The notes beneath the pieces were generated by a model. The model ran no database searches. It was not told the DNA's origin and was given only the letters and a program-made list of their open reading frames with translations. The position numbers and the translations under genes are program-made. From Candidatus Margulisiibacteriota bacterium (lineage in GTDB: Bacteria > Margulisbacteria > WOR-1 > O2-12-FULL-45-9), in NCBI GenBank assembly GCA_034723395.1, contig JAYEOW010000041.1, forward strand, positions 1 through 10,041: DNA of 10,041 bases, given 5' to 3'. This document shows, in pieces, positions 1-10,041 of the stretch (within the stretch, counting starts at the first letter, position 1; every line of letters starts with the position of its first letter).

Positions 1-1528
<1,528 letters not shown>

Positions 1529-1532
<4 letters not shown>

Positions 1533-2032
1533 TCTTCCGATATTTTAAAAGCGACCGGTATCTCAAATAAACTCGCGATCGCATTCCCGCCTTGGCTGGC
1601 CGGAGAAAAGCTCCATTGCGAAACCGCTGCTTTGGCCGACTCATCAAACTCGGCCAACCCTGCAGATTGTTTAACCTCTACTCTCTCCGGCTTTCCCGCC
1701 ATCCCGATGTACACCGACAAGATGGTTACCCCTTCAAGATCCTGTTCCAGCGCAGATATCGGATATTTCGGTAAAACCGAATAAGAAACCGTAGGCGGAA
1801 CAATTGGCAAAGGGGTCACGATCTTTGATTGAGGCATAGGCGCAGGAATGACCTTTGCCTGCGCTTTGGTGTTAACCATCGGCTTTGCGACCGTTTTTGT
1901 TACCACTAATTCCTCCCCCATAAAAACCGGCGCATCTTTTATCACCGGCTTGGATATCATCGTCGATCCAACAAACAGACCAACCGTCAGGATCATCCCT
2001 ATACTTATATAAGTTAAAGTTTTACTATTCAT
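1529..2032 (-). CDS. tonB: TonB-family protein (N-terminal hydrophobic anchor, Pro-rich linker, TonB C-terminal domain)
   Basis: Hydrophobic residues ~6-26, Pro-rich linker (PAPMPQ...PLPIVPP), then PKYPxxA...EGVTILSVYIGxxGxPxxVEVxQSAG...FDESAKAAVSQWSFSPA...IPVAF, which matches the TonB_C pattern. SD AGGAG upstream. Immediately downstream of a TonB-dependent receptor. Confidence 0.85.
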
Positions 2033-2046
2033 TGTTTTCTCCTATT

Positions 2047-2082
2047 TTATTTCTTAATTGATTAATTGTTAATTCTTAATTG
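2047..2082. repeat. Heptamer tandem repeat (5 units, (C/G)AATTAA on the minus strand) spanning the receptor stop codon
   Basis: Minus strand: CAATTAA GAATTAA CAATTAA T CAATTAA GAAATAA. Confidence 0.6.
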
Positions 2083-3864
2083 AACAGATATATTATACCT
2101 TCTCCCCGGCATCGGGTAAACATCTGAAAACCCGTAGGATTCGGCATAACTCTCGCCAAATAGGTTTTCAACTTCACCTTTAATTGTATAGATGCCAAAA
2201 TCTTTCGATAAGGATAGATCGACAACAGTATAACTCGGCAGTTGAGTGCTATTTACAAGATTGGTATAGCGCTCCCCTACATATCTTACAACTATATTAG
2301 AATCAAACTTATCCGGATCCCTATATTTCAACCCGGCATTCAACTGGTTCTGCGGAGCATAGTCGAGAAAATTACCTGAACCGGCATCCTTTGCCAGCTG
2401 GTAGCCAAAATTAATGAACGTTTTTAAATACTTCGCGATTTCTTTCTCATACTCAAACTCGATCCCTTGGATATCGGCGTCGCTGATATTGGTCGGCGTC
2501 CAGAAGGCATCGATCGTCGAAGTAGAGGTATTCGTCCAGCGGATCATATCTTTTATCTGATTCACATAATAACTTAACCGGGCCGAACTTTTATGGCTAA
2601 GCTTCCGCTCCAAGGTAATATCAAAGCTCTGGGAAGTTTCCGGCTTTAGGTTCGGATTCCCCTCGGTGGTAACTACTCCCGACGGCCAACCCGGCTCAGT
2701 CAACCTCGACCAATAGAGATCATCGATCGTTGGCGCTTTAAAAGATTTTCCCCAGGAAGTTTTTAGTAAAGTATCATGGCGCAAGTTAAAGACAAATCCT
2801 ACTCGCGGATTAAAATGGCTGCCATAAGAAGAAGTTATATCCTCACGCGCCCCAATTACCATCGGTCCAAGCTCCGCTTGGGCATAAACCGCTTTATTGG
2901 TCAAGTCATGGTTGCCGGAATTCGTGCTCCGGCTGTTATCATTTCTGATCTCCAATCCAGCGACATAATCTCCGATGGATTCCTGAATATTCAGATTTGT
3001 ACTGGTCGTTTTGTGGGTTGAAAGAATGGCAAAAGTCGGATTTTCGTATTTTTGGTCCAAGGTCGCCTGCGAAAGGGTCGCTTTTAATCCTGCCTTATCC
3101 GCCTTGTATACTAGATCGTAGAACATATTCTTATCGCTCTGTCTCGCTTGCGGAGTAAGGAAATCGAGCGATCCAGGAGAACCCTTATCAGTATTGCATT
3201 TCTTGATCCCCGCCTCAAAATACCCATTCATCAAGCGGAGATTGAGATCTTGTGCCCTGTAAGCGCTGTTAGCGCGGAATCCGTCGGAGTCAATCGCCGC
3301 CGCCGAGAAAAAGTAGTTCGGCCCGGAGCCTGCGACAGACAAATTCCGCGTCGCATACTCTCCATAACCGGCAGAAACGACAACCTCCGGCTTTTCGGTC
3401 GCTTTTCTGGTGATAATATTGATAACCCCGCCAACAGCATCCGCCCCGTAAAGCGAGGAAAGCGGCGCTTTTACGATTTCGATCCGCTCCACATCGGTTA
3501 ACAAAATATCTCCAAGGTCAAAAGTCCCTAGCGAAGGTGAATTTATCCGGTTCCCGTTCAACAGCACCAATACTTGCTGTGAATTTGATCCACGGAGCCG
3601 TGCTGAGATCTGAGAACTTAAACCACCGTTTGCCTTAACCGAAACTCCCGGAACCGTTCGAATAATATCGCCTATTTTAGCGGCGGTTGAATCTTCAATA
3701 TCTTCTCGAGTAATAACTGTAGTATCCCAGGGAATAGAAGATTTTAGGCGGGGAACACGCAGCGCGGTAACGACGATCTCCTCACCATAGAAACGCGGAA
3801 TGTCAGCAAAAGAACCAGCGGAAAAAACGATCAAACCAACCAATAAAATTATTAACTTTTTCAT
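2062..3864 (-). CDS. TonB-dependent outer-membrane receptor, BtuB/CirA-like (600 aa; substrate unknown)
   Basis: Start moved from 3927 to ATG 3864: SD AAGGAG upstream and a signal peptide MKKLIILLVGLIVFSAGSFA|D. TonB box EEIVVTA. Plug motifs (VITREDI, PGVSV, RGS...VLVLLNG, ERIEIVKAPxSSLYGADAVGGVINIIT). Barrel motifs FKAPT, GNPNLKPE, VENLF, PGRRY. Confidence 0.93.
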   Translation of the reverse strand: MKKLIILLVGLIVFSAGSFADIPRFYGEEIVVTALRVPRLKSSIPWDTTVITREDIEDSTAAKIGDIIRTVPGVSVKANGGLSSQISARLRGSNSQQVLVLLNGNRINSPSLGTFDLGDILLTDVERIEIVKAPLSSLYGADAVGGVINIITRKATEKPEVVVSAGYGEYATRNLSVAGSGPNYFFSAAAIDSDGFRANSAYRAQDLNLRLMNGYFEAGIKKCNTDKGSPGSLDFLTPQARQSDKNMFYDLVYKADKAGLKATLSQATLDQKYENPTFAILSTHKTTSTNLNIQESIGDYVAGLEIRNDNSRSTNSGNHDLTNKAVYAQAELGPMVIGAREDITSSYGSHFNPRVGFVFNLRHDTLLKTSWGKSFKAPTIDDLYWSRLTEPGWPSGVVTTEGNPNLKPETSQSFDITLERKLSHKSSARLSYYVNQIKDMIRWTNTSTSTIDAFWTPTNISDADIQGIEFEYEKEIAKYLKTFINFGYQLAKDAGSGNFLDYAPQNQLNAGLKYRDPDKFDSNIVVRYVGERYTNLVNSTQLPSYTVVDLSLSKDFGIYTIKGEVENLFGESYAESYGFSDVYPMPGRRYNISVQLRINN

Positions 3865-3986
3865 CTCTATACTCCTTTTTATTATGGAATATAGAGTCTC
3901 GGGAAACTCTACTTTTTTCCAGACCAAGGCAGGGTTAGAACCTGCTAATTAACTATTCCTCTCCCGTTGAGTAACTTGACCGGAAA
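3865..3986 (-). promoter_or_regulatory. Candidate cis-regulatory RNA: tRNA-like domain plus alternative SD-sequestering hairpins
   Basis: Hand-folded. CUCUAUAUUCC (3896-3886) pairs 11 bp with GGAGUAUAGAG (3875-3865, covering the SD). A competing 9-bp stem forms between 3912-3904 and 3899-3891. A tRNA-like acceptor/D/T arrangement lies at 3981-3921. Confidence 0.5.
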
Positions 3987-4641
3987 CCACGAGGACAATC
4001 TCGCCTCGCACCTTTTTATCACTTATTTTTTCCAGCACATCACCTGCCTTCCCCCTGATTATCTCCTCAAACTTCTTGGTCATCTCCCGGCAGACAGCAA
4101 CTTCGCGATCTCCTAAAATCTCTTTAACCTCTACCAAAGTTTTGACTAAACGAAAAGGAGATTCGTAGATTATAATCGTCCGCGGATCGTCTTGCAAGCT
4201 TCTTAAAACTTTTCGCTTCTTGCCCGGTTTCTTAGGAAGGAATCCTTCAAAGACAAAACGCTCAGTCGGTAGACCGGAAACAGCCAGCGCAGAGATTGCA
4301 GCCGAAGCTCCGGGGATCGGCTCAACCTTAATCCCCGCCCCTACTGCGTTGCGAACCAATTCATATCCTGGGTCAGAGATTGCCGGCATTCCGGAATCCG
4401 AAACTAATGCAATATTTTGTCCTTGCTTAATTAATTCGATGAGCTTGGGCGTCTTAGCCTTAATGTTGAACTTGTGATAAGAGGTTAATTCTGTGTTAAT
4501 TTGATATTTATTTAGCAGGATCTTGGTTGTTCGGGTATCTTCCGCGGCAATCAGATCAACTTCCGAAAGTATGCGGACTGCGCGGAAAGTAATATCTTCC
4601 AGATTGCCGATCGGGGTCGCGACTATGAATAGCGTACCCAT
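3949..4641 (-). CDS. rsmI: 16S rRNA (cytidine1402-2'-O)-methyltransferase
   Basis: MGTLFIVATPIGNLEDITFRA, AAEDTR, LVSDSGMPAISDPG, PIPGASA, FEGFLP, IYESPFRL, REMTKKFEE, RGEIVLVV. TAATG overlap with the bactofilin stop. Confidence 0.96.
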   Translation of the reverse strand: MGTLFIVATPIGNLEDITFRAVRILSEVDLIAAEDTRTTKILLNKYQINTELTSYHKFNIKAKTPKLIELIKQGQNIALVSDSGMPAISDPGYELVRNAVGAGIKVEPIPGASAAISALAVSGLPTERFVFEGFLPKKPGKKRKVLRSLQDDPRTIIIYESPFRLVKTLVEVKEILGDREVAVCREMTKKFEEIIRGKAGDVLEKISDKKVRGEIVLVVSGQVTQRERNS

Positions 4642-5051
4642 TAAGCAATGGGAAGTTTATCTTCGATAATGATCTCTTCTTCTATTTCTGATTTCCCTGT
4701 TTCAACACGGACCCTTCCACGGTAAGAAGATCCCTCTTCAATGCTGATCCTGCCGCCGGTTAGGTCGCCATTGACCCTTCCGCTCTTGGTTATTTCCAAG
4801 CTCTGTAAAGCGGTAATATTGCCGTTTACCTTACCCGAAACAACTACGTGTGAGCCCTCAACATCACCCAGGATCTTGCTGCCGCGCCCGATAATAACTT
4901 CACCTTCCGACGATAACTTACCTTCAAATCCACCATTAACGCTTACTGCTCCGGGAGTAACTAATTCCCCTTTAAATTTCGCTCTTTCACCAATCACCGA
5001 ATCAACTGCTCCGTGAATTACCGATTTTTTTTCTCCGCCAAACATACCCAT
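4641..5051 (-). CDS. Bactofilin (polymer-forming cytoskeletal protein, CcmA family)
   Basis: Beta-helix repeat pattern SVIG...FKGEL...VNGGFEGKL...VIIG...GDV...VVVSGKVNGNITA...LEITKSGRVNGDL...ISIEEG...GRV. Strong SD GGAGGAGG. Downstream of an M23 peptidase. Confidence 0.92.
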   Translation of the reverse strand: MGMFGGEKKSVIHGAVDSVIGERAKFKGELVTPGAVSVNGGFEGKLSSEGEVIIGRGSKILGDVEGSHVVVSGKVNGNITALQSLEITKSGRVNGDLTGGRISIEEGSSYRGRVRVETGKSEIEEEIIIEDKLPIA

Positions 5052-5052
5052 T

Positions 5053-5967
5053 TTACCTCCTCCAGATTTTACTAGCTGTTAATATATTCAAATTCAGGTA
5101 AGAAACCGGATTAATCGCTTTATTCGCTTTACGGACCTCATAGTGCAGATGGGGCCCGGTCGTATATCCGGTATTCCCCACATAACAAATAATCTGGCCC
5201 TTTTTAACCTTTTGGCCTGCCTTTACCGCATATCTTGAACTATGGGCATAAAGGGTAGAAATCCCGTGATCATGCCTAACCATCACTGTTTTCCCGTAAC
5301 CTTTTCTCCAGCCGGCAAAACTAACTAGCCCGTCCGCAGTAGACCGGATCGGCGCCCCATAACCTCCAGAGATATCGATCCCGGAGTGAAATCCTCTCCA
5401 GGGATAAATGCGGTATCCAAAACGCGAAACAATCCTTCCATTAAGCGGCCAGCGTGAAGGGGTGGAGGCATATCGCTGCCTTACCCTGCTCACCCAACCC
5501 TTTAGCTCGTCGAGACTTTTCTGCCTTTCCGTGATCCGCATACCCGCCACTTTAAACTCATAAGATACCTTTTCGGCCGAAGTTTTTGGATTGTTTTCTT
5601 TTATCGCGGTAGATAATTTGAGCTTCCCTTTCCAATTTTTCATCCCCAGCAAACTTCTTAGATGATTGTCTTCCCTGACCAACTCTTCGATTGCCTCATT
5701 TACTTTCCTTGTCTTTACGCCAAATCCGTCAATTACCCTCTGTTGTTCCTGGTTTTGGGCGATCGTATTCGCGTAATGGACTAACCGTCTCGAAACCAGC
5801 GTAGAATAAACGATCGAAGATCCAACCACCGTAGTGGAAAAAAGGATCATCGCAATCATGGTATAAATAGCAAATACAGGGATTTTGATACCAATAGTAC
5901 GCGCCCCCGGATCATGGGGGATCATCATGAAGGTATAATGCTTACGCTTCTTAGATTTCCTCTGCAT
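5053..5967 (-). CDS. M23-family metallo-endopeptidase (TM helix, coiled coil, LytM domain)
   Basis: N-terminal basic tail, TM ~31-57, coiled-coil-like region, then PSRWPLNG.I.SRFGYR, HSGID (HxxxD), GYGK.V...H, YAH, VGNTGYTTGPHLHYEV (HxH). Confidence 0.93.
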   Translation of the reverse strand: MQRKSKKRKHYTFMMIPHDPGARTIGIKIPVFAIYTMIAMILFSTTVVGSSIVYSTLVSRRLVHYANTIAQNQEQQRVIDGFGVKTRKVNEAIEELVREDNHLRSLLGMKNWKGKLKLSTAIKENNPKTSAEKVSYEFKVAGMRITERQKSLDELKGWVSRVRQRYASTPSRWPLNGRIVSRFGYRIYPWRGFHSGIDISGGYGAPIRSTADGLVSFAGWRKGYGKTVMVRHDHGISTLYAHSSRYAVKAGQKVKKGQIICYVGNTGYTTGPHLHYEVRKANKAINPVSYLNLNILTASKIWRR

Positions 5968-5976
5968 TATTACTTA

Positions 5977-6006
5977 AGTATATCAGTAAAATTATTATCT
6001 AGTCAA
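5977..6006 (-). promoter_or_regulatory. Sigma70-type promoter for the M23-bactofilin-rsmI genes
   Basis: TTGACT (6006-6001), 18-nt spacer, TATACT (5982-5977) with extended TGn; 9 nt to ATG 5967; no SD. Confidence 0.65.
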
Positions 6007-6603
6007 CTAGTACAAGCCCTTCGGTATTCCAGGGATCTTGGGCATTTTGAATTTTTTATACCCCGCTGGAAGTTCAAAAACCGAAGCCGGCTGCTTCCCT
6101 CTTTTGATATTCTTATACTCTACCATCCAGGACCCATCCGCCGTTTTTGTTCTAACCGGGATCATATCTTTTGACAGCCATTGATAAACCGTCTCTGATT
6201 TACCGCCGCTTTTATAGGTGATCTTATACTTATCACACATGACCCCATTTACTTTTCCTGACCCAACTTTTTTCCGGTTCATCTCCCCTGGCATTTTTGT
6301 TGTTAACCCCCTGGACTTATCCTCGGTATACTTCATCTCCATATACGTTTTCTGCCCCGGCATCAAACTCCAAACTGTCTTTTTGTCCGCGCGGATAATC
6401 GAGGTTGCTTTTTTACCGTAAACCGTCATATCCGTCCGCCATTTATTATTGGCCACATAAATTTTCCCTCGCTGGGTCATTCCTCCAAACTTCATTACCA
6501 TATCTGCCGAAAATTCTTTCGTGGCACTGGGGCCCGCGCAACCGAGGATCGAAACCATCACAAAAACCGAAACCAATGAAAAACCGATCATCTTCCTAAA
6601 CAT
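6007..6603 (-). CDS. Predicted lipoprotein, DUF4412 / LolA-like fold
   Basis: Basic N-terminus, hydrophobic core and lipobox ILG|C22. Motifs GKIYV...WRTDM, IIRADK...WSLMP..KTYMEM, GSGKVNGVMCDKY, SVFELPAGYKK resemble DUF4412 proteins. SD AAGGAGGT. Confidence 0.7.
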   Translation of the reverse strand: MFRKMIGFSLVSVFVMVSILGCAGPSATKEFSADMVMKFGGMTQRGKIYVANNKWRTDMTVYGKKATSIIRADKKTVWSLMPGQKTYMEMKYTEDKSRGLTTKMPGEMNRKKVGSGKVNGVMCDKYKITYKSGGKSETVYQWLSKDMIPVRTKTADGSWMVEYKNIKRGKQPASVFELPAGYKKFKMPKIPGIPKGLY

Positions 6604-6643
6604 ATTTTTACCTCCTTAATAAATGGTCGGGGTCCCGAAAAAA

Positions 6644-6717
6644 TCGGAGCGACTGGATTCGAACCAGCGACCTCACGCTCCCGAAGCGTGCGCTCTACCA
6701 AGCTAAGCTACGCTCCG
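6644..6717 (-). tRNA. tRNA-Pro(CGG), CCA not encoded
   Basis: CGGAGCG-TA-GCTT AGCTTGGTA GAGC-G-CACGC TTCGGGA GCGTG-AGGTC-GCTGG TTCGAAT CCAGT-CGCTCCG-A. Full cloverleaf, C1-G72, A73. Confidence 0.96.
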
Positions 6718-6751
6718 ATTTTCCTCGGGACTACCCCCCGTTAATCAAAAA

Positions 6752-6827
6752 TCGGGACGGCGGGATTTGAACCCACGATCTCTACCACCCCAAGGTAGCG
6801 CCTTAGACCAAGCTGGGCCACGTCCCG
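6752..6827 (-). tRNA. tRNA-Pro(GGG), CCA not encoded
   Basis: CGGGACG-TG-GCCC AGCTTGGTCTA AGGC-G-CTACC TTGGGGT GGTAG-AGATC-GTGGG TTCAAAT CCCGC-CGTCCCG-A. Separated from the plsY stop by 1 nt. Confidence 0.96.
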
Positions 6828-6828
6828 A

Positions 6829-7428
6829 TTATAGATACTTTTTCATCGCCTGGGAAGTCTTTAACTCCCTCCCAGAAACCAACCGCATTATATCATCCCG
6901 ATGCGTATACAACACAAGGGCAAAGGCAAGAACTCCGAAAATTATAAACTCATGCCTTTTACCGACAACAAACATCATGATCGGGATCGATCCTGATATA
7001 ATTAACGTAGAGAGAATAAAGTACCGGGTAACAACAATTAGCAAGATCCATAACGAAAGAGCGATAATGGCAAAAAATGGATCAATCGCCAATAAAACTC
7101 CCCCCATAGTCGCAATTCCCTTTCCGCCGCGAAATCTTAAAAAGATCGAAAAAACGTGTCCGGCAATCGCCGCTAATCCAGCCAGCGTCATCGCCCACGG
7201 AGTACCGAGGTACTGCCCCGCCAGATAGGCACACAGATATCCCTTGCCAACATCCCCAATTAGGGCCAGGGCGCCAAAGATCGGTCCCGCAACAACCAAT
7301 GCATTGGTCGCTCCCACATTCTTTGTCCCCGCCTCACGCACATCTTTGCCTTTTAATTTTGGAAAGATATGGCTAAAGGGTATCGAGCCTATAAGATATG
7401 ATAGAAGAATAAAAAGAAATAGGTCCAT
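6829..7428 (-). CDS. plsY: Glycerol-3-phosphate acyltransferase (acyl-phosphate dependent)
   Basis: SYLIGSIPF, DVREAGTKNVGATN, D.GKG, GHVFSIFLRFRGGKGIAT, HRDDIMRL..G.E; multiple TM helices. Confidence 0.94.
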   Translation of the reverse strand: MDLFLFILLSYLIGSIPFSHIFPKLKGKDVREAGTKNVGATNALVVAGPIFGALALIGDVGKGYLCAYLAGQYLGTPWAMTLAGLAAIAGHVFSIFLRFRGGKGIATMGGVLLAIDPFFAIIALSLWILLIVVTRYFILSTLIISGSIPIMMFVVGKRHEFIIFGVLAFALVLYTHRDDIMRLVSGRELKTSQAMKKYL

Positions 7429-7431
7429 ATT

Positions 7432-7911
7432 CTACTTCAGGTTAAACACTTTATGTAAGATTTGGACCGCTCGCTTCCCCTGTTCCCGCTTAATTACACA
7501 CGAAACCTTGATCTCCGAAGTCGAGATCATCTGAATATTTATTTTATTTTTCGAAAGGGCATCGAACATTTTAGCAGCAGTCCCAGGTTGGCTGATCATC
7601 CCCTTGCCGACCAGCGACACTTTACAAACATCCGGGTCCGAAACTACCCCTTCGGCCTTTAACTCCTTAGCTGCCTTTTCAATGACCTGAATAGTCCTTT
7701 TTGCGTCCGGCCTGTCTACGGTAAAGGCCATATCCGCCAATTCCCCTTTAGAGTGGATACTTTGAACGATCATATCCACGTTAATCTTTTCATCCGCCAG
7801 AGCGCCAAACAGCTTTGCCGCGGTCCCCGGCTTATCTTGAATTTTTAGTACTCCGATCTTTGCTATGTTCTCGTCAAGGGCAATCCCCCTGACCGCTTCT
7901 TTTTTCTCCAT
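7432..7911 (-). CDS. Aspartate kinase beta subunit (in-frame internal start at Met255, 159 aa)
   Basis: AAGGAGGT (7926-7919), 7 nt, then in-frame ATG 7911 at the kinase/ACT boundary. Same arrangement as B. subtilis AKII and C. glutamicum lysC. Confidence 0.8.
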   Translation of the reverse strand: MEKKEAVRGIALDENIAKIGVLKIQDKPGTAAKLFGALADEKINVDMIVQSIHSKGELADMAFTVDRPDAKRTIQVIEKAAKELKAEGVVSDPDVCKVSLVGKGMISQPGTAAKMFDALSKNKINIQMISTSEIKVSCVIKREQGKRAVQILHKVFNLK

Positions 7912-8673
7912 CTTAGATACCTCCTTGTTCGATTCGATCTCTTTTGACGACATTATCAATGTCCCCTTTTCTTCCTTGGTGCTCGACCGGAGGTGAATGA
8001 TAATATCGTAAATGCTGGCGCACTCTACCGCCCGCGGATGCAACACTTGGGCCCCTAGGCTGGCAAGCTCTAGCATCTCCTCATAGGAAATAACACTCAG
8101 TTTTTTTGCTTCCGTGACAATCCGCGGGTCTGTTGTATAGACTCCGTCCACATCCGTGTATATATCACAGACATCCGCCTTCAATGCGGCCGCGATCGCC
8201 ACCGCAGAAGTGTCCGAGCCTCCGCGACCGATAGTAATAATATCCCCTTTGCTGTCGATCCCCTGAAAACCGGTAATAACAACCACTTTATTATCATTAA
8301 TCTCTTTTCTTAGGCGGTCAAGGTGGATATGTTTAATGCGAGCTTTCCTATAGATATCTTCAGTCACTACGCCCGCCTGCCCCCCAGTTAACGAAATAGC
8401 GGGACAGTCCATCGATTGAAGCGCCATTGCCAGAAGGGAAGCAGAGACCTGTTCTCCGGTCGAAACCAGCATATCGTATTCGCGATGATCGGGATTATCG
8501 GTAATCTGGCCCATCAGATCGATCAACTCATCGGTAGTATGCCCCATCGCGGAAACGATAACAACAACTTGATTCCCTTTATCGCGGACCTTTTTTACGC
8601 GGCGTGCTACATTTTTTATCTTCTCCGGGGATCCGACTGAGGTTCCGCCGTATTTGTGGACAATAATTGCCAT
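7432..8673 (-). CDS. lysC: Aspartate kinase (alpha subunit; kinase domain plus two ACT domains)
   Basis: IVHKYGGTSV, VSAMGHTTDEL, STGEQVS, GFQG, TIGRGGSDTSAVA, IYTDVDGVYTTDPR, YEEMLELASLGAQVLHPRAVE; ACT domains DKPGTAAKLF and ISTSEIKVS. Confidence 0.96.
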   Translation of the reverse strand: MAIIVHKYGGTSVGSPEKIKNVARRVKKVRDKGNQVVVIVSAMGHTTDELIDLMGQITDNPDHREYDMLVSTGEQVSASLLAMALQSMDCPAISLTGGQAGVVTEDIYRKARIKHIHLDRLRKEINDNKVVVITGFQGIDSKGDIITIGRGGSDTSAVAIAAALKADVCDIYTDVDGVYTTDPRIVTEAKKLSVISYEEMLELASLGAQVLHPRAVECASIYDIIIHLRSSTKEEKGTLIMSSKEIESNKEVSKMEKKEAVRGIALDENIAKIGVLKIQDKPGTAAKLFGALADEKINVDMIVQSIHSKGELADMAFTVDRPDAKRTIQVIEKAAKELKAEGVVSDPDVCKVSLVGKGMISQPGTAAKMFDALSKNKINIQMISTSEIKVSCVIKREQGKRAVQILHKVFNLK

Positions 8674-8683
8674 AACGAAAATT

Positions 8684-8692
8684 ATTATACCA
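8684..8692 (-). promoter_or_regulatory. Extended -10 element upstream of lysC
   Basis: TGGTATAAT overlaps the pseudouridine synthase stop; 10 nt to ATG 8673; no SD. Confidence 0.55.
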
Positions 8693-9386
8693 TATTTAAG
8701 CTGCGGATTTCAGTTCGAGTCAAGTATTCGTATTTACCAACCTTAAGGTTGCCCAATTGTATGTTTTTAATTCTGACTCTTTTCAAAAAAACCACTTCGT
8801 TCCCCAGAGCTTCGACCATCCTTCTGATCTGCCGGTTTTTTCCTTCGCGAAGCACAATATTAAAGCGCTTGCTCCCTTTTATAAATATTCTGGCTGGTAA
8901 AGTTTTTTCTTTTCCAATCACGGGCCCCTCTTTGATTTTTTTGATCTGTTCCGGCTTAAGCGGGCCCCTAACTGAAACCTGGTACTCTTTTTCGTGTTCA
9001 TAGCGGGGATGCATCAGGCGATTTGCCAACTCGCCGTCATTAGTTAAGATCATCAATCCCTGGGAATCGGCATCCAGCCTGCCAACTGGATATAGGCGAT
9101 ATGGGATATCTGATATGAGGTCTAAAACAGTTTTCTTTCCCCTCTCTGAACAGGAACTGATAATTCCGCGCGGTTTATTTAGCTTAATATAGATCTTTTT
9201 TTCTTTTTTCTTGAGTTTCTTCCCATTAACGATAATAATATCTTTTTCGGGATCGATCTTGGTCCCCAGTTTCTTGATAATTTCCCCATTTACCTTCACT
9301 TTGCCTGAAACAATCAGCTTTTCAGACCTTCTCCGTGAGGCAACTCCGCATTCGGCTATATATTTTTGAAGTCTTACTTCAGACAT
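8685..9386 (-). CDS. rRNA pseudouridine synthase, RsuA/RluB/RluF family with N-terminal S4 domain
   Basis: Likely start ATG 9386 ([23 protein letters not shown] upstream; 8-nt overlap with the macro gene) rather than 9425. Motifs LNKPRG, YPVGRLD (catalytic Asp), GLMILTNDGELA..LMHP, EKEY, EGKNRQIRRM, LKRVRI. Confidence 0.93.
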   Translation of the reverse strand: MSEVRLQKYIAECGVASRRRSEKLIVSGKVKVNGEIIKKLGTKIDPEKDIIIVNGKKLKKKEKKIYIKLNKPRGIISSCSERGKKTVLDLISDIPYRLYPVGRLDADSQGLMILTNDGELANRLMHPRYEHEKEYQVSVRGPLKPEQIKKIKEGPVIGKEKTLPARIFIKGSKRFNIVLREGKNRQIRRMVEALGNEVVFLKRVRIKNIQLGNLKVGKYEYLTRTEIRSLNMV

Positions 9387-9939
9387 TGATATAAGCCTCA
9401 TAAGTTTCATTATTATAGAGAACAAAACAGACCTCTTTGATCGAGCTTTCTTGTTGAAGGAACTCTTTTACCGCGCCAATCGCAACCGGCGCCGCTTTAC
9501 CCAAAGGATACCTGTAAGCTCCAGTCGATATTGAAGGAAAGGAGATCGACTTTAATCCTTCTTCCGCAGCCAGCCTTAACGATTCAATGTAACAACTTCT
9601 CAGTTTTTCCTCCTGATTCCCCCCGATATTCCTTGATTCCCCCTGTTTCCCTTTATAAATCGGTCCCACCGTATGTATCACATACTTCGCGGGAAGCTCT
9701 CCTCCGGTAGTGAGGACTGCCTTCCCCGTCGGAAGTCTTTCAATCTTTTTTATGATCGCATCACACTCTTTAAGAATGGCTGGCCCTCCTGCCCGATGGA
9801 TCGCTCCATCGACTCCTCCCCCGCCCATCAGGCTGGAATTTGCCGCGTTAACGATCGCATCCGTCTTTTGCTTGGTGATATCGCCTTTTAGGAAAATGAT
9901 TTTCGATCGATTAATTTCGATTTCTTTCATCTTAATCAT
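9379..9939 (-). CDS. Macro-domain protein, O-acetyl-ADP-ribose deacetylase (YmdB-like); start at 9939 or 9930
   Basis: GDIT...[60 protein letters not shown]. Confidence 0.93.
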
Positions 9940-9940
9940 T

Positions 9941-9953
9941 ATTATAGTATAAT
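9941..9953. promoter_or_regulatory. Overlapping divergent -10 elements (candidate bidirectional promoter)
   Basis: Plus TATAAT 9948-9953 lies 7 nt before ATG 9961. Minus TATACT 9951-9946 lies 6 nt before ATG 9939. Minus TATAAT 9946-9941 lies 10 nt before ATG 9930. Confidence 0.6.
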
Positions 9954-9960
9954 TCTATTC

Positions 9961-10041
9961 ATGGCTAAAGACCATTCATTCGATATAGTTTCTAAACCAA
10001 ACCTGCAGGAGATCGATAATGCGATCCGGATGGCGATGAAG
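9961..10041 (+). CDS. yajQ: YajQ-family nucleotide/c-di-GMP-binding protein, 5' fragment
   Basis: Manual translation [27 protein letters not shown] matches the YajQ N-terminal SFDIVS...QE..NA signature. Truncated by the window edge. Confidence 0.88.

Follow-up and report, generated by a model that had tools for sequence, protein, structure and literature searches.

The yjdF riboswitch, as reported, has an aptamer that mimics tRNA, with D-loop and T-loop equivalents forming a ligand-stabilized elbow, and acts at the level of translation; it is built on a four-helix junction, binds azaaromatics, turns translation ON, and pairs its T-loop with the Shine-Dalgarno (SD) sequence (PMC9142559). Cobalamin riboswitches are represented in Rfam by the families Cobalamin (RF00174) and AdoCbl-II (RF01689). 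Here we compare with these systems a leader element found in a 10,041-nucleotide (nt) stretch of DNA from Candidatus Margulisiibacteriota bacterium (GenBank assembly GCA_034723395.1, contig JAYEOW010000041.1, positions 1 to 10,041; hereafter the window). The element lies between an rsmI-like methyltransferase gene and the gene of a BtuB-like TonB-dependent receptor, and a sequence-only reading had drawn attention to it as a tRNA-like fold near the rsmI stop codon. With a probability that we put at about 55% from sequence comparisons, it is a new corrinoid-responsive translational riboswitch, built on a tRNA-like scaffold and forming the leader of a btuB-like receptor-tonB operon.

The whole leader, comprising sensor and expression platform, covers ∼139 nt (3856..3994, on the minus strand, as are all window features given below) and matches our covariance model R1 with 132.3 bits (E = 1.6e-30). 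Its sensor of ∼70 nt is a three-way junction composed of an acceptor-like helix (P1), a D-like arm, and a T-like arm, with the anticodon arm absent. The 5' strand of P1 (UUUCC followed by GGUCAAG, 3975..3986) is located inside the rsmI coding region, and its 3' strand (3916..3928) consists of CUUGGUC, a U bulge, and GGAAA, as indicated by pairing, fold, and covariation. The pairing of GGUCAAG with CUUGGUC (3981-3975 with 3928-3922, including two G-U pairs), its extension by UUUCC/GGAAA (3986-3982 with 3920-3916, U3921 being bulged), and the hairpin GCAGG-UUCUAAC-CCUGC (3945-3929) are all present as the sequence-only reading had drawn them. The D-like arm (3958..3972), whose register is fixed by covariation, has the stem (A)CUC/GAG(G) and the loop AACGGGA (3968-3962); the previously proposed CUC/GAG pairing around this loop (3971-3959) stood, and the first D-stem pair did not, being A.G in the window, so that the stem has 3 bp there. 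A 12-nt linker (3946..3957) replaces the anticodon and variable arms and holds the rsmI stop codon UAA (3951-3949), which had rightly been placed inside the element. It leads to the T-like arm (3929..3945), supported by covariation, with the 5-bp stem GCAGG/CCUGC and the 7-nt loop UUCUAAC, in which position 57 is a U in the window and no purine. The original picture of a tRNA-like fold that lacks an anticodon arm and CCA is accurate.

Downstream of the sensor, an anti-sequestor hairpin, H4 (3892..3911), reads UAGAGUU(U)-CCCG-(AG)ACUCUA and bears UCCCG (3904-3900) in its loop. The CUCUA segment of its 3' strand also belongs to the 5' strand of an SD sequestor (CUCUAUAUUCC, 3886..3896), identified by covariation and stability, and the 3' strand of this sequestor (3865..3875) contains the SD sequence GGAG (3875-3872) together with UAUAGAG and abuts the AUG. 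One CUCUA segment has, in this way, two alternative partners, the upstream UAGAG in H4 or UAUAGAG beside the AUG in the sequestor, and the second pairing extends to an 11-bp helix across the SD.

A single sequence would not have passed as evidence for such an element. The isolated 71-mer folds into the proposed shape with a minimum free energy of −18.8 (z of −1.02), and 35 of 200 shuffles were as good. ARAGORN detected nothing at the element and only two tRNA-Pro genes in the window (6643-6828), and Rfam at gathering scores likewise reported these two genes and no family at the element. At E ≤ 10, a search of positions 3780-4120 gave no match at 3916-3986, the tRNA model RF00005 included, and a search of a divergent member gave no known family apart from chance rows. 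We judged the element real because of comparative evidence. When positions 3800-4100 were searched with BLAST against 41 related genomes, 27 matched, the matches continued across the intergenic region as far as the following start codon, and the aligned element region was far more conserved than the upstream rsmI coding sequence. Model R1 retrieved a full-length, single-copy element in 29 of the 31 genomes of the order and in all 16 high-quality ones; the exceptions were G003, represented by a fragment at a contig end, and G013, in which an insertion interrupts the copy and one further weak match, the third, has a tRNA-like alignment. Across the class (Saganbacteria/WOR-1 according to record titles), 46 of 65 genomes have the element, and R1 did not detect it in any of 46 genomes belonging to other classes within the phylum. 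In a public collection of species genomes, 12 of 14 true matches are labeled Candidatus Saganbacteria, Margulisiibacteriota, or WOR-1, the other two being labeled "bacterium" and "Omnitrophota"; pattern matches in records from Selenomonas, Helicobacter, Corynebacterium, and similar organisms (15 of 29) were rejected as chance. A metagenome scan with a D-arm/T-arm pattern yielded 53 loci, 48 of them real and 5 chance.

We then analyzed a structure alignment of 85 copies, 69 of which are distinct, all being related sequences; 43 of the 85 rows had been retrieved by a pattern in which two T-stem pairs and both the D- and T-loops are fixed, and the alignment was fitted to the P1, T, and sequestor helices of the model. 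Among the 69 sequences, changes on both sides were found for 10/10 pairs of P1, 5/5 pairs of the T-like stem (99.7% paired), 3/4 pairs of the D-like stem in the register with a 7-nt loop, 4/7 pairs of H4 (92% paired), and 7/11 pairs of the SD sequestor, whose 10-bp core helix is 99.9% paired. None of 500 shuffled controls reached the observed values, and slid controls dropped to 26-56% paired. H4 and the sequestor are mutually exclusive and both covary, as exemplified by UGGAG/CUCCG/UAUGGAG in L023 and L029. These data bear out the proposal that the tRNA-like fold forms the sensor side of a conserved RNA switch governing access to the SD. For the D-like stem, RNAalifold and the model had suggested CUC/GAG with a 5-nt loop; we rejected this register because the covariation in L047 (CUU/AAG) and in L060 and L062 (UUC/GAA) favors a 7-nt loop.

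Sequence conservation is concentrated in the loops. The letters of the D-like loop (A-R-CGGGA) are near-invariant, as is CCCG in the H4 loop, and the T-like loop has U, U, C, and A at positions 1, 2, 3, and 5 (UUC-N-A) invariant or nearly so, such that the D-like and T-like loops retain the letters that form the tRNA elbow. The T-loop base just before the stem is mostly U and not a conserved C. The linker differs between families, being of a UAGUUA type or an AAACGG type, or reduced to ∼6 nt in L060, L062, and L065. The "U8" of the sequence-only reading is not conserved either (C in 28 sequences, A in 17, U in 23, and G in 1).

How would the sensor act on the platform? In 68 of the 69 sequences, the sequestor exceeds the H4 state in stability, by a mean of −5.0 kcal/mol; being thermodynamically favored, it implies that H4 needs help to hold the ON state. 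The sequence-only reading had invoked the P1 extension, which would share bases with the ON fold, but P1 and H4 have no base in common and the spacer between them is variable (∼55-370 nt in five lineages), so that coupling through the P1 extension fails and coupling through adjacent strands is ruled out by the long insertions. A pseudoknot between UUCUA and UAGAG, also suggested at the outset, shows no covariation, with observed values equal to shuffled ones and 0 pairs changed on both sides. Sensor and platform share just one conserved complementarity, that of CGGGA in the D-like loop (3966-3962) with UCCCG in the H4 loop (3904-3900), whose four G-C pairs hold in 65-69 of the 69 sequences. 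From this complementarity and from two lineage-specific variants, we infer a loop-loop contact that couples the two modules. In the first variant, L065, CGGAA faces UUCCG, which is compensatory after a one-base shift. The second, in G109 (L174, G109:C3, about 46204-46341), has a rebuilt platform in which H4 is lost and a 14-bp sequestor covers SD and AUG (z of −4.0); here the sequestor starts with UCCCG, whose partner is a second CGGGA with its end in the AUG, which suggests that the D-loop can compete directly for UCCCG. The G109 T-loop has U instead of C56. As for the insertions between the sensor and H4/sequestor, those in four metagenome contigs (L120, L131, L133, L168) measure ∼100-370 nt and that in G013 (G013:C9:17331-17563) ∼55 nt; some contain short tandem-like repeats, and both modules are intact.

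The element is followed by the receptor gene in 83 of 91 locus rows, and the other 8 leave the contig within ∼240 nt. In the window, the receptor gene (2062..3864, ATG at 3864) is recognized by the Pfam domains Plug and TonB_dep_Rec_b-barrel, and its start is separated from the end of rsmI (3949) by a gap of 84 nt. The best NCBIfam model for the receptor is TIGR01779 (TonB-B12), at 236.7 bits, below the cut-off of 599.7. The upstream gene is usually rsmI, but it is a type III glutamine synthetase gene in G034 and an unrelated open reading frame (ORF) in G032, and in G104 and G099, rsmI stops short of the element. Since the receptor is constant downstream and the upstream gene varies, we assign the element to the receptor. 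It often overlaps the rsmI stop, but such overlap is not required. Nor does the proposed link to tRNA-modification genes hold, as the receptor is the putative controlled gene at 83/83 loci and queA and tgt lie downstream in some genomes only. Receptors of seven loci (L006, L007, L008, L011, L012, L016, L018) carry variable basic extensions before the signal peptide, encoded by short DNA repeats (ATCAAGG-like heptads) and absent from the receptor of the window; the G106 receptor lacks the leader element and has a different context.

The case for a corrinoid combines the TonB-B12 affinity of the receptor, the genes that follow it in two genomes, and evidence from sister families in the same class. 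Families f7 (8/8 genomes) and f9 (2/2) are devoid of the element and have RF00174 at 57-95 bits; in this class, absence of the element from a family coincides exactly with presence of the classical Cobalamin riboswitch. In these ten genomes, the riboswitch is followed by a receptor orthologue in 9, preceded by rsmI in 9, and flanked by both in 8, one rsmI match (L078) being partial and ∼1.3 kb away. AdoCbl-II (54.4 bits) occupies the same rsmI-receptor slot in G040, and four genomes (G008, G029, G031, G087) have neither RNA and no receptor detectable with the query used. A quick unrooted receptor tree places the receptors behind cobalamin riboswitches among those behind the element. As the element sits in the slot of the classical cobalamin riboswitch of sister lineages, it probably represents a novel type of B12 riboswitch, and cobalamin, listed by the sequence-only reading merely as one ligand to probe, becomes the best-supported candidate effector. 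The genome of the window has no Cobalamin-family match (its best RF00174 score, 11.8 bits, is elsewhere in the genome) and no match to CobS; it encodes a MetH-like B12-dependent enzyme. This MetH-like protein (810 aa; G000:C6, L169 1915-4347, minus strand) has homocysteine methyltransferase, pterin-binding, and two B12-binding domains, and no reactivation domain is listed for it by Pfam. Genes of corrinoid metabolism follow the receptor in two genomes: in G104, the order is cobS, a CobC-like phosphatase gene, cobU, and cobQ, and in G101, it is a PF01902 gene, cobS, a CobC-like phosphatase gene, cobU, a gene for a BtuF-like binding protein, and cobT, with these frames overlapping or abutting. 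The PF01902 gene (Diphthami_syn_2-type ATP-binding) lies directly after the receptor in L178 (1973-2638, G036) and L179 (2016-2690, G101) and may have an unrecognized function in corrinoid salvage.

By sequence, the element bears the general marks expected of a riboswitch, namely, a conserved sensor, mutually exclusive platform helices involving the SD, and a consistent gene association. We propose the following mechanism. The sensor copies the upper half of tRNA, with P1 as the acceptor stem, P2/L2 as the D arm, and P3/L3 as the T arm. In the ON state, CUCUA would pair with the upstream UAGAG to form H4, leaving the SD only weakly paired and the AUG region free, and the D-like loop, by pairing its CGGGA with UCCCG of the H4 loop, would prop this hairpin up. 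In the OFF state, which is predicted to be thermodynamically favored, CUCUA would pair with UAUAGAG in the 11-bp helix that buries the SD. We infer a corrinoid effector, either B12 or a precursor, that binds directly and represses. The contact favors ON whichever of the two platforms is present, and a substrate would be expected to turn off its own importer; the ligand would accordingly withdraw the D-loop. Upon corrinoid binding, the D-like and T-like loops would be held in an elbow like that of tRNA, for which the yjdF riboswitch offers a precedent in translational control (PMC9142559). This would pull the D-loop off UCCCG, so that the sequestor would win and import would be shut down.

Several observations weigh against this interpretation. 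The junction strands, the usual site of small ligands, are poorly conserved. The loop-loop pairs are invariant and hence display no column-wise covariation, and the pair counts lean towards P1, the T stem, and the sequestor, because the alignment was fitted to these helices. The contact favors ON, so that B12-dependent repression needs the extra assumption that the ligand breaks the contact; classical cobalamin riboswitches are opposite in sign, the kissing loop of class II being ligand stabilized and OFF. No cobalamin covariance model matched the window region or a divergent member at E ≤ 10, and GCCACUG does not occur, even with one mismatch, inside 3856-3994. Lastly, G019 has the element plus a sub-threshold AdoCbl-II-like match (35.1 versus 36.5 bits). 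This match (G019:C30:2539-2629) is at the end of a 2.8-kb contig, and the gene downstream of it is not assembled. A more elaborate proposal falls somewhat short of even odds in our estimation: the element may represent a third, structurally unrelated class of cobalamin riboswitch, derived from tRNA exaptation or convergence, that displaced the classical cobalamin riboswitch in situ within one bacterial class, works by a corrinoid-driven D-loop/T-loop elbow that releases a kissing contact, and has a 5' half that doubles as the last rsmI codons.

Among the alternatives to a corrinoid riboswitch, the one that survives best keeps the RNA and the platform and supposes that the tRNA-like domain is read by a macromolecule recognizing tRNA elbows, such as RNase P or RNase Z (which would free the receptor mRNA from rsmI read-through), a tRNA-binding protein, or the ribosome, any B12 response being indirect. 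The conserved letters are exactly those that form an elbow (GG in the D-loop, UUC.A in the T-loop, and the G-C closing pairs) and the junctions vary, P1 and the T stem form an acceptor/T-type stack, and the next-best genomic matches of R1 (G104, G013, G040; 26-28 bits) show 21-24-nt insertions at the D-arm in their alignments, the pattern expected of real tRNA genes. The frequent location of the element within or right after rsmI, with no room for a promoter, and the tolerance of long insertions between domain and platform would also suit such a reader. Yet CCA and a discriminator are lacking and the P1 helix runs past 7 bp; a pure processing signal leaves unexplained the conserved D-loop:UCCCG complementarity, its retention in G109, and the one-for-one swap with cobalamin riboswitches in the same slot. 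We therefore regard this explanation as unlikely, with perhaps a fifth of the weight.

Less likely again is a leader that senses nothing and serves as a constitutive translation enhancer or mRNA stabilizer, H4 and the sequestor being a separate module, e.g., a kinetic or thermal one. Domain and platform are indeed separable by ∼100-370 nt and the junctions have no conserved pocket. Exclusive helices that both covary are nevertheless typical of a regulated switch, the UCCCG/D-loop complementarity is kept across two platform designs, and the element sits in the slot of ligand-sensing riboswitches of sister families. What such a leader could do is illustrated by the yjdF study, in which authentic tRNAs grafted into leaders are reported to activate translation (PMC9142559).

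It is improbable that the element is a riboswitch for another small molecule, whether preQ1, a metabolite of the queuosine pathway, or another substrate of the receptor. This idea draws on the presence of queA and tgt after tonB in the window and many relatives. The hairpin GG-UUCUA-CC presumably resembles part of the preQ1-I stem-loop, as the sequence-only reading suggested, and finds no support in Rfam: none of the preQ1-I/II/III families matched the window region or the divergent member at E ≤ 10. Moreover, queA is often distant or absent, with cob/btuF genes present instead in G104 and G101, orthologous receptors lie behind cobalamin riboswitches, and the mostly U final base of the T-loop does not provide a conserved C. 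Finally, a decayed tRNA pseudogene or a chance fold, to which the unremarkable single-sequence fold and the negative tRNA finders might have pointed, is refuted by the fixed position of the single-copy element across a bacterial class and by the compensatory changes seen in all helices; a comparison with the genome's 46 tRNAs revealed no obvious parental source.

The remaining features of the window are arranged around the receptor. The rsmI-like gene (3949..4641) was assigned from a PF00590 match and its ORF, and its final ∼12 codons coincide with the 5' strand of P1, the D-like arm, and the linker. Nucleotide conservation in this overlap (3949-3986) disregards codon position despite rsmI coding; the same overlap exists in G096 and is absent in G104, G099, and G098. 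A promoter-like site within rsmI (TTGCAA-17-TATAAT, 10/12, 4169..4197), found by a consensus scan alone, is only a candidate start of a receptor transcript. After the receptor, the apparent operon continues with a TonB-family gene (1529..2032, PF03544), with queA (534-1532), which overlaps the tonB stop, and with tgt (1-537), which is truncated by the window end. queA, often with tgt, comes after tonB in many but not all genomes (the window, L066, L069, L176, L177, L180, L181, and L184), often ∼200-900 nt from tonB or outside the operon, and cob/btuF genes take its place in G104 and G101. QueG, considered as a link between B12 and queA/tgt, was rejected, as no QueG_DUF1730 match was present in the genome of the window. 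The two tandem tRNA-Pro genes, with CGG and GGG anticodons, are located at 6643-6718 and 6751-6828 (ARAGORN and Rfam).

If corrinoid binding is true, a classic ligand would gain a new class of riboswitch, whose tRNA-like aptamer has roughly half the canonical size; the element would be a second tRNA scaffold used as a small-molecule sensor, after yjdF, and a natural case in which one riboswitch architecture has taken the place of another at a single locus. It would further help to annotate B12 uptake in genomes of Saganbacteria/WOR-1, in which Rfam currently detects no cobalamin riboswitch, and would be a compact candidate part for B12-responsive gene control. Even with a protein or RNase as effector, a class-wide tRNA mimic wired to an SD switch would be unusual. 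We found no counterpart of the element in Rfam 15, and full-text searches of the openly accessible literature returned nothing on the motif. The novelty probably resides in a riboswitch-type leader of new architecture, whose ligand is probably a known one.

With the cobalamin riboswitches (RF00174 and RF01689), the element has in common the slot between rsmI and a BtuB-like receptor gene that they occupy in sister families, the kind of regulon (btuB, tonB, cob, and btuF genes), translational control through SD sequestration, which is predicted for the element, a 7-nt T-loop-type hairpin closed by GG/CC (in the Rfam consensus), and, putatively, a loop-loop contact between the sensor and a platform hairpin. 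It differs from them in matching none of their covariance models, in lacking the GCCACUG box, in having a three-way junction and a ∼70-nt sensor instead of the four-way P3-P6 junction, and in a contact that appears to favor the ON hairpin. The likeness to yjdF would lie in a tRNA-like aptamer, translational control, and one tRNA-like loop that pairs alternatively with the platform, whereas the element has no equivalent of the anticodon arm, has three helices, and would pair its D-loop with the loop of an anti-sequestor (PMC9142559). The context is also different, the element preceding a gene for a TonB-dependent receptor in a setting of B12 import. The yjdF family, whose model we take to be included in the Rfam library searched, gave no match to the element at E ≤ 10 in the window region or the divergent member.

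Like tRNA, the element stacks an acceptor-like helix on a T stem of 5 bp and possesses equivalents of U54, U55, C56, and A58 in the T-loop, together with G53-C61, and of A14, R15, GG, and A21 in the D-loop. Unlike tRNA, it is missed by ARAGORN and RF00005, has no anticodon arm, variable arm, or CCA/discriminator, carries a pyrimidine at position 57, does not conserve position 8 as U, has a P1 longer than 7 bp, and is embedded in an mRNA leader. The tRNA-like domain of tmRNA, the bacterial YrlA Y-RNA module, and viral 3' tRNA-like structures likewise stack an acceptor arm on a T arm, have a reduced D region, and do without an anticodon arm. These anticodon-less mimics are stand-alone or 3' terminal and are aminoacylated or protein bound, whereas the element described here is an internal domain of a 5' leader with an SD switch.
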